DNA of 61,298 nucleotides, from positions 1 through 61,298 of the forward strand of contig NJBH01000022.1 in NCBI GenBank assembly GCA_005223125.1, read 5' to 3'. Origin of the DNA: Promethearchaeota archaeon Loki_b32 (GTDB lineage Archaea; Asgardarchaeota; Lokiarchaeia; Sigyniarchaeales; SOKP01). Below the pieces are notes generated by a model. It ran no database searches. It had not been told where the DNA came from and saw nothing but the letters and a program-made list of their open reading frames with translations. How positions within the stretch are numbered: position 1 is the first letter of the stretch; every line of letters begins with the position of its first letter. Positions 55,117 through 61,298 of the stretch are shown in pieces. A program made the position numbers and the translations under genes.

Positions 55117-55799
55117 TTATTTTCGTATACTATCCGTATATTTATTCGATTGATTAATTAACATTTCTAATTGATCCTTTTCAATTGGAAGTTCTTCAAA
55201 CTCCTTTTGAGCTTCTATAATTAAGTCATCAAGAGAAGGAAGAGTTCCTTTATCCTCTATCATCCATTTGGTCATAGTGTTTAAATCATTTTCACCATCC
55301 CAATCTATTGTTGGAATATCTTCTTTAGTGTGAATACTTTTCTTATAAATACCTTCAGTTAATGCTTTATCTAATAGAGTGTCACAAGAGATCCATTTTT
55401 CAGAAAGATAACACTCACACCAAGGATGATGTCGTATTATATCTGGGGACAACTTGTAAAATGATTTTGAAACTATGCCTTTAATACATTCTTTACGCAA
55501 AGAAGCAATATGATATCTAGCTGGGATATTGACAGCACGTAACAATGCAACTTGAAGATTTGTTTTGGTACCACAATCACCAAATCTTTTTTAAAGAGTT
55601 TCAGATGCTTTGTCAAATTCACACATCATGAATTTTATCTGATCTCTTACAAAATGAAAAATACTTAACGCCATCTCTTTAGGAATTTTGTCATTCTTAG
55701 TAAATTCTTTTGCCTTAGCAATTATTGCTTGATTGTTACAATCACAAAATTCTGTGGATTCAAAAAATCTTCCATACCTTCCATTGACTGTAAATTCAT
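55117..55799 (-). pseudogene. Transglutaminase-like protein pseudogene
   Basis: STEFCDCN..IFHFVRDQIKF..ASETL*KRFGDCGTKTNLQVALLRAVNIPARY..HPWCE..D. In-frame TAA at 55591-55593 and an apparent frameshift near 55760 relative to the ATG at 55799. Confidence 0.8.
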
Positions 55800-55951
55800 T
55801 CTAAATTTCAACCTCATAAAAATTTAAAAATTGACAAATTTGTTATATTATACTTAATTTAAATAATTTATTTATACCACAAAATTAGAAGGATTTAGGA
55901 TAATTACAAAAATAAACAAAAATAAGAAATTTATTGCAAAATTTTTCTAAA

Positions 55952-56133
55952 TTAAGTTCCCTCTTCATATCCATGAATATAATTGTATTGTTCTTCTGTT
56001 AAAGTATCTATTTTAACTCCCATTGCTTTTAATTTGAGAAATCCAACCTTGTCGTCAATGTCAATTGGGACGTCAACCATACCTGGCTTTAGAGAATCTT
56101 TATTTTTTACAATATATTCTGAAATTAAGGATT
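55952..56133 (-). repeat. Duplicated 3' end of ahcY (direct repeat of 57022-57203)
   Basis: Encodes SLISEYIVKNKDSLKPGMVDVPIDIDDKVGFLKLKAMGVKIDTLTEEQYNYIHGYEEGT*, near-identical to the AhcY C-terminus; offset 1070 bp. Confidence 0.93.
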
Positions 56134-56206
56134 AAAAATATTAATTAAACATAGGAGTTTTTCAGATATAGTCATCTTTATATATGATAGAATCATATAA
56201 TATCAT

Positions 56207-56704
56207 ATGGTAATATCTAATTCAAGTCCATTAATACATCTAACCAGATTAGGAAAGATAAACTACTTGTTTAAATTGGTGAAATATATAAACATCCCTA
56301 AAGCTGTATTCGATGAGGTCGTGGTAAAAGGAAAATTTAAGAATTACTCAGAAGCTTTTACCATTGAAAGTTTTATTAAAGAAGAAAAAATTATAGTCAC
56401 TAATTTAAATTCATTTGATGAATCATTTTATCCCCCAATAGGTAGAGGAGAACTAGAATCACTTGAATTAGCTAAACAGAAAAATGAATTGTTATTAATT
56501 GATGAAAAAAAAACTCGAAATTTAGCTCAAATCCTTCAGATTGAACATCAAACAACTATAGCAACTATTTTTGAGCTTTTAATTTCAAATAATATTGATT
56601 TTTCTGAATATAAATCAAACTTAAAAAAATATGCAGAAAATAGTTGGGTTTCAGCAGATATTATCCAAGAATATATTGAGAAAGGTGAGGATTATGGGAA
56701 ATAA
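56207..56704 (+). CDS. PIN-domain (DUF3368/VapC-like) toxin
   Basis: VISNSSPLIHL, IPKAVFDEV, GRGELESL.LA, LLIDEK. Confidence 0.88.
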   Translation: MVISNSSPLIHLTRLGKINYLFKLVKYINIPKAVFDEVVVKGKFKNYSEAFTIESFIKEEKIIVTNLNSFDESFYPPIGRGELESLELAKQKNELLLIDEKKTRNLAQILQIEHQTTIATIFELLISNNIDFSEYKSNLKKYAENSWVSADIIQEYIEKGEDYGK

Positions 56705-57014
56705 AATATCTATCATATTACTAGATGATTTGAAAGAAGAAATTGATAAGTTAAAGGAAATATATAAGGAGGAGCAATCCTCGTATATAAGAAAGTTATT
56801 ATGGAAAAGTGTTGCTCAGGAAAAATTAGATTATGCTTTAAATCAATTCATCGATGATAAAACATCTTTAGGAAAATCTGCCGAAATTGCGGGGATTTCC
56901 ATTTGGGAAATGCTCGATGAATTACATAAAAGGAATATTACATTAAAATATAAAATTTCGGAAGCAGAATTAGAAATTGAAAAGATATTAAAAAAATATA
57001 AAAAAATAGAATAA
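56694..57014 (+). CDS. UPF0175-family antitoxin (RHH + HTH)
   Basis: SSYIRKLL, SLGKSAEIAGISIWEM..EL; ATG at 56694 overlaps the toxin stop. Confidence 0.85.
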   Translation: MGNKISIILLDDLKEEIDKLKEIYKEEQSSYIRKLLWKSVAQEKLDYALNQFIDDKTSLGKSAEIAGISIWEMLDELHKRNITLKYKISEAELEIEKILKKYKKIE

Positions 57015-57021
57015 ATATAGA

Positions 57022-58290
57022 TTAGGTTCCTTCTTCGTAGCCGTGGATGTAGTTATATTGCTCCTCTGTTAAAGTATCAATTTCAACTCCCATTGATTTT
57101 AATTTGAGAAATCCAACCTTGTCGTCAATGTCAATTGGAACGTCAACCATACCTGGCTTTAGGAAATCTTTATTTTTTACAATATATTCTGACATTAAAG
57201 ATTGTAAAGCGAAGGACATATCCATTACTTCACTTGGGTGCCCTTCTGATAAGACTAAATTAGCTAATCGTCCTTTTGCTAAGAGATAAACTTTCTTACC
57301 ACTAGGAAAGATTAATTCTTCTACATTCTGTCGAATTGGTTTAATTTCTTTTGAATATTCATAGAGTTCTTTTGTAGGAATTTCAATATCAAAGTGTCCA
57401 AGATTTCCAAGGATAACTCCATCCTTTAATTTATCAAATAGTTCTGTTTTAGGAGGAATAACATGCTTACATCCCGTAGCTGTTAAGATAATATCCGCAT
57501 AAGTTAGAGTATCTTCAATTGGTTTAACTGAAAATCCAGCAAATATAGCTTGTAACGCTTTTATAGAGTCAACTTCTGTGACAGTTACATTAGCACCCAA
57601 TCCCCGCGCTCTGAGTGCCATACCTGAACTACAATGCCCATATCCCGCTATAACTACATTCTTACCTGCAAAAAGAACATGCATTCCGTAAATTGCTGAA
57701 ACTATACCCTGTCCTGTTCCTAATTCATTATCAAATTGATTTTTACATCGAGCATCATTAACGGGGAAAAGTGGCACTTTCAACAGACCTTGGCTATCCA
57801 TCGCTTTAAATCTCTTAACACCTGTGGTGGTTTCTTCTTGACACGCCATAATAGTACCTGATTTTATAAGATCTTCATATTCCTGATGAGCAGTTACAAT
57901 CATATCAGCACCATCATCAATTAAGATATTAGGTTTGGCATTTAAGCACTGTCTTATACACCAATAGAATTCTTCATCCGTATTTCCGTGCCAAGCAAAA
58001 ACATTAATCCCTTCTTGTGTTAATGCTGCTGCCACATCATCTTGTGTTGATAATGGATTACTACCACAGAGATAAACTTCAGCTCCACCAGCTTTCAGAG
58101 TTCGAGCAAGATTACCAGTTTCTTTTGTTATATGCAAACAGCCGGCGATTGTTATACCTTTTAATGGTTTTTCTTTCTGAAATCTTTCACGAATTACCTT
58201 TGCAGTGACAGGCATTTTATTTTCTGCAATATATAGTGCTTCTTTTCCTTGATCAGCTAAACTTTCATCCGCTACTTTATAATTAACCAT
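57022..58290 (-). CDS. ahcY: S-adenosylhomocysteine hydrolase
   Basis: GCLH, SNPLSTQD, DDGAD, EETTTG, VND, ATG, GHFDIEI, GRLANL..GHPSEVMDMSF. Confidence 0.97.
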   Translation of the reverse strand: MVNYKVADESLADQGKEALYIAENKMPVTAKVIRERFQKEKPLKGITIAGCLHITKETGNLARTLKAGGAEVYLCGSNPLSTQDDVAAALTQEGINVFAWHGNTDEEFYWCIRQCLNAKPNILIDDGADMIVTAHQEYEDLIKSGTIMACQEETTTGVKRFKAMDSQGLLKVPLFPVNDARCKNQFDNELGTGQGIVSAIYGMHVLFAGKNVVIAGYGHCSSGMALRARGLGANVTVTEVDSIKALQAIFAGFSVKPIEDTLTYADIILTATGCKHVIPPKTELFDKLKDGVILGNLGHFDIEIPTKELYEYSKEIKPIRQNVEELIFPSGKKVYLLAKGRLANLVLSEGHPSEVMDMSFALQSLMSEYIVKNKDFLKPGMVDVPIDIDDKVGFLKLKSMGVEIDTLTEEQYNYIHGYEEGT

Positions 58291-58410
58291 TTCAATTTCA
58301 CTTTCTTTTTTGTAAGAATATTAATTTTAATTAATTAATAAACCTTTTTTTGGTTAGATGCAAATATTTATATATAAAATTTAACAATTAATTAATAACA
58401 ATTAAAAAAT

Positions 58411-59703
58411 TTGCAAAATTGTAATAATATGAGTATTATTAAAGATCAGGCAGAAGTCCAAAGATTTATAAAAAATTTAAGTGGAAAAACCAAATTTATT
58501 GTTTCAAAAAATTCACGTGCGATAGGACTCTCTAGACAAACATATCAAAACAAACTTGATGGTTTGAGAGATCAAAAAATAATTACAAATTTCACTATAA
58601 ACATAAATCCAAATATTCGGCCAAATAATTTGAAATATGTGATGCTTGAAATTAAAACTAACCCAAAAGAACCTGAGTTAGTCAAAAGATTGTTAGAAAT
58701 ACCCCAATTGAGAACGTTGGATGGAATAATTGGGGACTTTTCTTTATTCGCCTTATTTATCTTTAAATCTCCTGAAGAATACTATCAGATATTAAACACA
58801 ATAGACAAAATAATGGCAAAATCATATTTTAAAAAATATCAAATTATTGAAACTATTAAGGTGTTTAAGACAAATGGAATTAGCTTGAGGAAATCAAGAA
58901 TATCATTTGAAGAAGAAATAATGGATAAATTAAAAGAAAGAAAGGTTGATGATAGCGAGAATATAGAAATCGAAATTCAAAATAAAATTGATTTAAATCA
59001 AATTGCTCAAAAAAATGCAGAAATCGAATACAATCCTGAGAAATTTCCAGGTATTGTTATGAAAATTGAAAATACTCCCACTAAAATTTTAGTTTTTTCA
59101 AATGGTAGAATTGTTCTTACTGATTTAAAGAATATAAAAAAACCCGAATTATTAATAGAGAAAATAATTATGAATATAAGGAAAACTGGGATAAAATTGG
59201 ATAAGAAAAACATTAATCAAGATTTTGAAGTAGACAATATTGATTATATAATTTTAAATATATTAAGAGATGGTCAAGGACTTAAACCAATATCCACATA
59301 TGAAATTAGAAAGATCTTTAAAGATCAACTTAAATTGGAAATTTCACAATCAACTATTCATAACAGAATTAAAAAACTTGAAAGTGAAGGTGTGATCTTG
59401 AACTATACTGTAAATTTTCATCCAAAAAAAATAGATTTTAAAGGAAAATATCTTCTTCGAATTAAACCGAAAGATCCGTCAAAATATAACGAGCTTGCTC
59501 TTAGATTGGATATGAACAAAAATATTACTGATTTATTTCGAATAGGTGAACAATATGGACTATTTGCAATAGTTAGAGTAAAGAAAATTGAAGATTATGC
59601 AACTTTTATTAGAGATCTATATAGTTCAGAAGAAATCGAAGATACTTACACAAATTTTGTTTTGGATGAGTTAAAACCATACACTAATTTCTCAGTCTTT
59701 TAA
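58411..59703 (+). CDS. Tandem Lrp/AsnC transcriptional regulator with an internal single TBP repeat
   Basis: HTH1 GLSRQTYQNKLDGL..IITNFTININP + RAM; TBP-like ENI..IDLNQIA..IEYNPEKFPGIVMKI..KILVFSNGRIVLT; HTH2 DNIDYIILNIL..ISQSTIHNRIKKLESEGVI + RAM. Confidence 0.85.
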   Translation: MQNCNNMSIIKDQAEVQRFIKNLSGKTKFIVSKNSRAIGLSRQTYQNKLDGLRDQKIITNFTININPNIRPNNLKYVMLEIKTNPKEPELVKRLLEIPQLRTLDGIIGDFSLFALFIFKSPEEYYQILNTIDKIMAKSYFKKYQIIETIKVFKTNGISLRKSRISFEEEIMDKLKERKVDDSENIEIEIQNKIDLNQIAQKNAEIEYNPEKFPGIVMKIENTPTKILVFSNGRIVLTDLKNIKKPELLIEKIIMNIRKTGIKLDKKNINQDFEVDNIDYIILNILRDGQGLKPISTYEIRKIFKDQLKLEISQSTIHNRIKKLESEGVILNYTVNFHPKKIDFKGKYLLRIKPKDPSKYNELALRLDMNKNITDLFRIGEQYGLFAIVRVKKIEDYATFIRDLYSSEEIEDTYTNFVLDELKPYTNFSVF

Positions 59704-59853: not shown

Positions 59854-61298
59854 ATGACATATTTCTTTGAAGTTTTAGCCAGTAAGATCGGTTATTCAAG
59901 AATAGGGAGAATCATTTTTTCTAAAGAACGAAAATTATTTATTACTACTCCTAACTTAATCGTCCCTATAAAAAGCTCATTGATGAAACAATTTAATTTT
60001 ATTCAAGAATTTGAGAATCATGATCTATTCACAATTTCTAAAGAATTTTTTTTGAAAATTAGTTTTATACGAGATAAATTTAAAAATACTGGATTTATTT
60101 TCAACTATCCCGGGACAATTCAGAAATTCCAAGAAATATTGATAAAAAATAATAACATATTTTCTAAAGATAATATAATATCAATTGTTCCATTTAATGT
60201 TCCGACAACTAGTATTAGTAAAGATTTTGCTATAAAAGAGATAAAAAATTATCTTCTAAATGTAGAAACAATTTTAAAAAATTACCCACATCTAAATTTC
60301 GGTTTATCATTAAAAATTTTTGATTATACGGAATTATTTGATTTTTATACTCCAATAGTAAAACAATTTGAAAATATAAAAATCGTAAATTTAGTTGACC
60401 TCTTTGATAATTTAAGTAACTTTAGAAATATTCTTAAAATAATCTTCAAAATAAAAAATAATTTGGATAATAATGTAATTATTATGGTTTCTGGTAGAAT
60501 CATCCCGAAATATTATCCGTTATTAATCTACTTGGGAATAGATTTAATTGATTGTTCTTATTCCATGTTTTTATCCGCCGAAAACTTCTATGATACAATA
60601 GAATATCTATTACCAATATATAAGGTTAAATATTTCCCATGTTCCTGCGTAGCTTGTAAGGGTAAATTAAATTATCTATCAAATAATAAACATTCTGGTG
60701 AAAAAATTGATTTATTAAGTCTACATAATTTAATTACAGCATCAAATTATATGAAAAAGATCAAACAATATTTAAATTATGAAGATTATCGAGCTTTTGT
60801 AGAAAAATCATCCTTGGATGAAACAAATTTAATTTCGATTTTAAAGATATTAGATAAAGAATATTTTAATTATCTTAAATATGAAACACCGATAATACAA
60901 AAAAGTAAAAAAGTAAGATGTCTTGGTCCTTCTTCATATAATAGGCCAGATTTCCAGCATTTCAGGGAAAATACTATTAAAAATTTTGAACCTGAATCAT
61001 GGACAAGATTAATTATTTTACTACCATGTTCTTCTAAAAAACCTTATTCAAAATCAAAATCACATAAAGCATTTTATAGTGTTATAAGAAAATTTTCAGA
61101 GTTTCCAGATTTTCAAGAGTTTATTTTAACATCACCATTAGGAGTCATACCAAGACAATTAGAGAATATTTATCCGGCAAATTCTTATGATATATCCGTA
61201 ACGGGTGAATGGGACAATGAAGAAATAAATATTACCGCAGAAATGCTTATTAGAATGGTAGAAAAATACGAACCTGAGATTCCAATTCTATGTCATTT
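59854..61298 (+). CDS. arcS: Archaeosine synthase alpha subunit (ArcS/TgtA2), partial, runs off the right edge
   Basis: Manual translation: MTYFFEVL..SRIG; LGIDLID; CSCVAC..LHN; RPDF; LLPCSSKKPYSKSKSH; LTSPLGVIPRQLE.IYPANSYDISVTGEW. Confidence 0.85.
   Translation, partial: MTYFFEVLASKIGYSRIGRIIFSKERKLFITTPNLIVPIKSSLMKQFNFIQEFENHDLFTISKEFFLKISFIRDKFKNTGFIFNYPGTIQKFQEILIKNNNIFSKDNIISIVPFNVPTTSISKDFAIKEIKNYLLNVETILKNYPHLNFGLSLKIFDYTELFDFYTPIVKQFENIKIVNLVDLFDNLSNFRNILKIIFKIKNNLDNNVIIMVSGRIIPKYYPLLIYLGIDLIDCSYSMFLSAENFYDTIEYLLPIYKVKYFPCSCVACKGKLNYLSNNKHSGEKIDLLSLHNLITASNYMKKIKQYLNYEDYRAFVEKSSLDETNLISILKILDKEYFNYLKYETPIIQKSKKVRCLGPSSYNRPDFQHFRENTIKNFEPESWTRLIILLPCSSKKPYSKSKSHKAFYSVIRKFSEFPDFQEFILTSPLGVIPRQLENIYPANSYDISVTGEWDNEEINITAEMLIRMVEKYEPEIPILCH

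Follow-up and report, generated by a model that had tools for sequence, protein, structure and literature searches.

Archaeal regulators of the Lrp/AsnC family (FL11/PH1519, PDB 2cyy and 2e1c; P. furiosus LrpA; Sulfolobus LysM; M. jannaschii Ptr2) are built from units of a helix-turn-helix (HTH) and a RAM domain. Members of this family dimerise, assemble into octamer-type oligomers, bind an amino-acid effector at the RAM interfaces and recognise an operator of 13-17 bp close to the promoter. LrpA-type repressors and Ptr2-type activators both bind at sites bordering the TATA box, and Ptr2 recruits free TATA-binding protein (TBP) by contacts of its RAM surface, carrying no piece of TBP itself (PMC2995911). 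The proposed origin of TBP is the duplication of one nucleic-acid-binding lobe (PMC3597702, PMC7221094), and single TBP-type domains occur in RNase HIII, AlkA-type glycosylases, halobacterial TbpA and monopartite proteins of Thermococcales (PMC3597702). Two isolated fusions to possible DNA-binding domains, divergent from TBP, are also described there, with AsnC unmentioned (PMC3597702). Here, we analysed a 61,298-nt stretch of DNA from Promethearchaeota archaeon Loki_b32 (contig NJBH01000022.1; the whole stretch is called the window below), which encodes a tandem Lrp/AsnC regulator with one TBP lobe between its two units.

The regulator shares with the archaeal Lrp/AsnC proteins the HTH-RAM units, a neighbouring gene of amino-acid metabolism and conserved boxes bordering a presumed TATA box, but it has two non-identical units per chain, with differing recognition helices and the TBP lobe between them. 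Whereas Ptr2 contacts free TBP, this protein carries a TBP piece of its own. With the N-terminal lobe of archaeal TBP the insert has in common the fold (Z 10), 45% amino acid identity to repeat 1 of the genome's own TBP, the Phe pair and most distal DNA-face residues; unlike that lobe, it is single, has lost the dyad half of strand 1, has no TFB-binding Glu and is dispensable. Like the RNase HIII N-domain and other single TBP-domain proteins, it is one TBP-type lobe in or beside another protein. However, in RNase H3 and the glycosylases the domain is ancient, far diverged and part of an enzyme acting on RNA/DNA hybrids or in repair, while the lobe described here is a recent, traceable copy of a real TBP gene inside a sequence-specific regulator. 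The sequence-only reading knew of no characterised protein with this architecture, and we found no description of an Lrp-TBP fusion in the literature searched, most subscription papers lying outside that search; the architecture is real and apparently undescribed.

Positions 58411-59703 form one stop-free frame, and the start conserved among orthologues gives a product of 424 aa (record P0002) with the domain order HTH-RAM, single TBP lobe, HTH-RAM (Table 1). In the Pfam search, the RAM profile PF01037 matched two stretches above its cut-off; HTH1 scored weakly (E 0.2), yet it is helical in the model and has an invariant recognition helix. NCBIfam LysM/Lrp models also matched in two stretches (62-64 bits), the top Foldseek matches were Lrp/AsnC proteins, and the ESM Atlas search returned Lrp matches only, all below 0.8. 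The Lrp/AsnC hallmark of an N-terminal HTH and a C-terminal RAM domain was found by Pfam, in the model and by Foldseek. Among PDB sequences, the flanks matched Lrp/AsnC proteins and the middle matched archaeal TBPs (1pcz, 2z8u, E 2e-18). The Lrp-TBP-Lrp layout first proposed from the letters is borne out by these Pfam, NCBIfam and PDB matches and by about 90 distinct orthologues. The full-length AlphaFold model had a pTM of 0.47 and did not fix the position of the lobe relative to the HTHs. In lobe-less forms within the family the linker between the units has 7-10 residues, a length compatible with an Lrp pseudo-dimer. Siroheme decarboxylases AhbA/AhbB are likewise made of Lrp-like HTH-RAM units, and fused forms of them are known. 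An enzyme of this type was rejected here, with 17.7 and 17.5 bits against cut-offs of 140 and 125 and no heme-pathway genes nearby.

Table 1. Features of the regulator locus, in window coordinates
Feature	Position	Strand	Remarks
ahcY (adenosylhomocysteinase), divergent, probable target gene	57022..58290	-	TIGR00936 515 bits, over cut-off
Near-invariant spacer block	58326..58369		same with or without lobe; candidate operator flanks
Second conserved block	58380..58396		imperfect mirror of first; inverted repeats I2, I14
Tandem Lrp/AsnC regulator gene with one TBP lobe	58429..59703	+	424 aa; in-frame TTG at 58411 not conserved
HTH1, Lrp-type winged helix-turn-helix	58447..58611	+	invariant R36 Q37 T38 Q40 in recognition helix; dN/dS 0.20
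RAM1 ligand-binding/oligomerisation domain	58627..58884	+	PF01037; dN/dS 0.11
Acidic helix/linker	58906..58959	+	dN/dS about 0.6; missing from short-form orthologues
Single TBP lobe, N-terminal-repeat type, strand 1 shortened	58960..59199	+	PF00352 and modelled fold
Phe wedges of lobe	codons 59044-59046 and 59095-59097	+	both Phe present
Gly-to-Asp change in lobe	59122-59124	+	codon of position 125
HTH2	59224..59418	+	recognition helix invariant, differing from that of HTH1; HTH_24 match just under cut-off
RAM2 ligand-binding/oligomerisation domain	59443..59700	+	PF01037 E 2.3e-12; dN/dS 0.14
arcS-like gene (archaeosine synthase alpha), vertical marker	59854..61296, runs off window	+	NF040592 E 1.8e-67

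PF00352 matched the regulator once, at aa 188-258 (59.8 bits against a cut-off of 22.9, E 2.4e-16), so that the two lobes in one chain that define a TBP are not present; NCBIfam TBP models likewise found one stretch, with 38-59 bits against cut-offs of 181-347. Folded alone, the lobe was modelled with a pLDDT of 81.5 and aligned with TBP structures over 86-88 residues (Z 10.6, 10.2 and 9.3, rmsd about 3 Å), the top match covering 88 residues at 3.0 Å, as compared with Z of at most 5.8 for non-TBP folds. The insert is one TBP repeat, as had been proposed, and it both scores and folds as such. The genome carries two whole TBP genes and one C-lobe fragment, and it is repeat 1 of the main TBP that the insert resembles most (68% nucleotide identity). 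The acidic N-tail motif of this main TBP still precedes the lobe in some orthologues (P0038, L015). In the lobe tree, the inserts form one group with moderate support (81/75) on the N-lobe side of a 100/96 split. By these comparisons, the donor of the lobe is the N-terminal repeat of a host TBP, and the acidic helix/linker derives partly from the acidic N-tail of the donor. Close strains in runs X3 and X9 have 12 extra nucleotides, in frame, at 58923 in this linker. The C-lobe fragment of the window's own genome (G000:C2:88418-88552, L006) is a 65-codon frame and probably a decayed third TBP gene. The genus holds up to three or four types of two-lobe TBP paralogue (G000:C39:40722-41246, L003 and L005; L062-L072); the C39 type combines a strongly diverged N-lobe with a C-lobe nearer to canonical.

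The sequence-only reading placed the gene divergent from ahcY across a spacer of about 120 bp. The divergence stands, but the spacer is 138 bp because the conserved start is ATG 58429. Each of the four families sampled within the order shows this arrangement, whether or not the lobe is present, and from such conserved synteny we suggest that the regulator probably controls ahcY, the gene of SAH hydrolase. Archaeal consensus points to a probable BRE/TATA of ahcY within the first spacer block, with the TATA at about 58342-58335 on the minus strand, and the second block is a candidate promoter/operator of the regulator's own gene. The ahcY TATA was not confirmed by a genome-wide positional TATA scan, which gave only a weak peak near -32, and the upstream regions of tRNA genes (15 genes only) contained no promoter motif. 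The spacer blocks are alike in 43 lobe-bearing and 18 lobe-less loci, with a similar layout in basal relatives, and no promoter column or Lrp residue consistently tracked the lobe across these two sets. Searching the rest of the genome for the spacer box gave 13 matches, as compared with 14 for the control; this lack of a regulon signal fits a local regulator.

The regulator was found in 125 of 135 genomes of the family and the lobe, as counted from match span and frame length, in 37 of those 125, spread over five genera (24/51 in g1, 10/37 in g22 and one each in g12, g15 and g19). Related loci are mostly from Promethearchaeota/Lokiarchaeia, and a search of 16 genomes from three other families found no lobe. 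Since the lobe-less tandem Lrp divergent from ahcY is present in all four families sampled, it represents the ancestral state. A 113-row tree of the Lrp parts alone required 10 changes of lobe state (10-11 in bootstrap trees; at least 6 forced by starred branches). A single clade of lobe-bearing rows was rejected by the AU test in the 76-row set that includes remnant-bearing loci (p = 9e-67) and not rejected in a 50-row set (p = 0.10). The direction of change is loss, as deletion remnants show directly: L169 retains helix 1 of the lobe, L170 retains the acidic helix, and L182 is a junction of the two flanks of its sister's lobe. The history read from these alignments and trees is one gain followed by removal 6-9 times. 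Some apparent losses could be conversions by lobe-less alleles, with the lobe removed in either case.

The patchy distribution was accompanied by signs of exchange. Against the genera, the regulator tree required 18 changes (minimum 9), with g1 as a single clade rejected (p = 2e-54), and the ahcY tree 19, whereas the tree of the arcS-like gene on the same contigs required 5, which is the minimum (window 57022-59703, loci L007-L030 and L232-L271). The arcS-like gene is truncated by the window end and scores below the full-length cut-off of NF040592. In addition, the lobe-bearing contig of g15 retains g15's own downstream gene. Because the regulator and ahcY trees conflict with the genera and arcS agrees, the ahcY-regulator block has frequently been exchanged in place, horizontally, between species and genera. 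Mis-binning was rejected as a full explanation for the patchy spread among genera, since arcS on the same contigs follows the genera and the g15 downstream gene is kept. L157 and L187 differ by a dS of 0.99 in Lrp1 and 0.03 in Lrp2, which marks recombination within the regulator gene. The 3' end of ahcY is directly repeated over 191 nt (88%), at window 55948-56138 and 57018-57208, and the two copies bracket a PIN-like gene (56207-56704, weak Pfam match) and a UPF0175 gene (about 56694-57014); this pair is a toxin-antitoxin-like cassette integrated at the ahcY end. A short frame adjoining the cassette on the minus strand (55117-55545) has a weak transglutaminase-like match to the C-terminal half only and may be truncated.

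We then compared selection on the lobe with that on its surroundings and on TBP. Simple Nei-Gojobori counts over 19 disjoint pairs of AT-rich DNA, one of which (L157/L187) recombined inside the gene, gave an approximate dN/dS of 0.46 for the lobe (95% CI 0.40-0.53), 0.12 for Lrp1 and 0.21 for Lrp2; for repeat 1 of real TBP the value was 0.027, about 17 times lower than for the lobe. Within the lobe, dN/dS was 0.25-0.32 for the DNA face, 0.35 for the buried core, 0.64 for the outer helix and 0.66 for the strand-1 remnant. The lobe is under purifying but relaxed selection, much freer than TBP, and its exposed DNA face is constrained as much as its core. An insert present in 37 genomes at a dN/dS of 0.46 is neither private to this genome nor evolving neutrally.

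Residues were surveyed in 90 inserts (89 for the TFB-contact position) averaging 48% identity; the rows are related and the counts are therefore not independent. We use yeast TBP numbering and assume for each position the role it has in TBP-TATA structures. At the TBP dyad, Asn-x-Val of strand 1 and Thr-Gly provide TATA-centre contacts and lobe-lobe pairing. A functional TBP also binds and bends TATA DNA and supports initiation with TFB and RNAP. Both intercalating Phe had been noted as retained, and they are: F99 is present in 90/90 inserts and F116 in 80/90, with both in this genome's copy, and P100 is present in 89/90. Lys/Arg is kept at positions 98, 105, 120 and 127 in 97, 82, 94 and 74% of inserts, as compared with a mean of about 47% at other basic sites, and concave hydrophobic residues keep their class in 90-100%. 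In contrast, the basic DNA-face residue 110 is lost (Lys/Arg in 13%), Thr124 and Gly125 occur together in 20/90, and Asn-x-Val is found in 1/90, with acidic residues in its place and strand 1 reduced to just four residues in the model. The start of the lobe consequently does not match the strand-1 consensus to which it had been aligned. The replacement of the TG glycine by Asp holds for this genome (Asp125) but not as a general state, as position 125 is Gly in 71/90 orthologues and Asp in 14/90. TFB is bound by two stirrup glutamates of TBP, C.L3.2 and C.L3.4 (PMC7221094); Glu at C.L3.2, the first of these, was found in 0/89 inserts, and L3.2 and L3.4 are both acidic in 6. By residue comparison, the lobe has kept the kinking end of one TBP lobe and lost TATA-centre reading, lobe-lobe pairing and the TFB signature. 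Judged by its domains, the protein is a member of the Lrp/AsnC family whose insert falls within the TBP-domain superfamily, but apart from the Phe wedges it lacks the features of a functional TBP surveyed here.

We propose that the single chain forms an Lrp pseudo-dimer (HTH-RAM-HTH-RAM) that would regulate ahcY and probably its own gene too. The two HTHs would select the site, and the RAM domains would respond to a small ligand, which is probably either an amino acid or a metabolite of the methionine/SAH cycle. As judged from the sequences, a TBP N-terminal lobe was inserted in frame into the short inter-Lrp linker in one ancestor, and it keeps the distal half of the TBP DNA face, with two Phe wedges and four Lys/Arg. 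Tethered in this way, a lobe with little sequence preference would most likely act as an accessory grip: seated in the minor groove of the AT-rich DNA that adjoins the operator, it would add affinity or a kink, and it may contend with TBP for the downstream TATA half-site. It would tune regulation without being required for it, since lineages repeatedly delete it and retained copies are under moderate purifying selection.

A lobe that is kept by selection yet often deleted suggests an optional, Lrp-aimed minor-groove grip or kink rather than a private replacement for TBP, and we give this reading a probability of about one half. The constraint on the exposed face (0.25-0.32), similar to that on the buried core (0.35), supports it, as do the retained Phe pair and four Lys/Arg, the presence of the lobe-bearing allele in five genera and a separate lobe capture in the same genus, likewise in an HTH protein. 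The single TBP-like N-domain of RNase H3, which lays its exposed sheet across the minor groove, binds weakly alone and enhances substrate binding (PMC4132731), sets the precedent for one lobe serving as an accessory that binds the minor groove weakly. Several results count against a DNA grip, namely the loss of residue 110, Asp in place of Gly125 in this genome's copy, the absence of any promoter column or Lrp residue that changes with the lobe, a lobe dN/dS about 17 times that of TBP and a full-length model that leaves the lobe unplaced; folding or a protein contact may instead explain why the sheet residues are conserved. The TATA-occluding repressor suggested earlier may be a variant of the accessory grip.

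That the fusion is an artefact of assembly or gene calling has a negligible chance of being correct. Every genome is a metagenome assembly and the same samples hold lobe-less close relatives, but both junctions are crossed by single contigs of runs X1, X3 and X9, which come from three studies (the source sample may be X1), and for this reason the fusion is not chimeric. The same layout in about 90 distinct orthologues, the purifying selection visible at codon level and an insert DNA just 68% identical to the genome's own TBP gene also argue against an artefact. Run X9 also contains a lobe-less relative that skips 58897-59222, and in RNA run X19 the regulator gene had no coverage. A more serious contender, to which we give perhaps half the weight of the optional grip, is a lobe that does nothing useful: tolerated in a permissive linker, selected only for harmless folding, hitchhiking with the exchanged block and deleted by chance. 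The at least six, about nine, independent in-frame removals with their remnants (L169, L182, L170), the lack of compensating change in promoter and Lrp residues, the lobe dN/dS of 0.46 and a locus that recombines often, with the ahcY 3' end an integration site here, would all be explained by such a passenger. A useless exposed hydrophobic patch would, however, be expected to become polar, and the solvent-facing concave surface is instead constrained like the core, with F99 invariant at a mean identity of 48%.

Protein contact offers another explanation for the same surface. Canonical TBP can dimerise through its concave face, and the face of the lobe might dock on TBP, on another lobe of an oligomer or on its own acidic helix and act as a recruiter, decoy or clamp. 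Nothing on the face is better preserved than its hydrophobic residues, Lrp activators work via TBP contacts (PMC2995911), and elsewhere TBP-type domains are used for contacts between proteins (PMC3597702). We nevertheless consider this rather improbable: the four phosphate-contact Lys/Arg persist more often than other basic sites do, and the acidic helix, which short forms lack, is under weak constraint. Still less credit goes to the ligand-controlled pseudo-TBP of the sequence-only reading, in which lobes of two chains would rebuild the saddle on TATA and recruit TFB for TBP-free transcription. In its favour, neither Phe wedge has been lost, the modelled lobe has the fold of a TBP repeat, and higher Lrp oligomers wrap DNA (PMC2995911), so that two lobes could approach each other. 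The saddle is nonetheless poorly supported and very unlikely, because the dyad half of strand 1, which joins the two lobes of TBP, and the TFB-contacting Glu (PMC7221094) are absent from this N-type lobe (100/96 split, 0/89), the genome has two whole TBPs, and the ahcY promoter is unchanged after lobe loss, its layout being older than the gain. Moreover, the lobe has been deleted repeatedly and is far less conserved than TBP.

A second lobe capture was observed in the same genus (L060:280-1803 and L061:3-731, both on the minus strand; P0122-P0127). This protein of 507 aa, found in six clusters, joins an N-lobe to a Ras-like GTPase and an ArsR-type winged HTH; its lobe keeps strand 1 and forms its own clade (100/99), and its gene is divergent from an Elp3-like radical SAM gene. 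Stand-alone single TBP lobes in frames of 96-122 aa were also found in three genomes (L058:1347-1706 and L059:1289-1576, both on the minus strand, and G011:C47:9274-9495). Those of L058 and L059 have a similar gene context, and they are either small monopartite proteins or TBP copies cut short. Tentatively, and at odds we put well below even, Promethearchaeota may repeatedly copy TBP lobes into regulators as a ligand-gated wedge that kinks or occupies half a TATA box and so helps or blocks the loading of TBP.

If the lobe were a passenger, the case would reduce to a well-documented domain insertion. If it acts as a wedge, regulation would be built from a piece of the basal machinery, and the protein would serve as a living model for how a functional TBP lobe acts as a monomer on double-stranded DNA; in the literature searched, we found no lone TBP-derived lobe shown to work on promoter DNA. 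Natural controls exist on the same promoter, in close orthologues that carry the lobe, lack it or keep a partial remnant, and this recent, traceable case makes the question of what half a TBP can do directly testable. The locus also points to a probable local regulator of SAH hydrolase, and it shows that an Asgard lineage has, on two or more occasions, built pieces of the general transcription machinery into gene-specific regulators.
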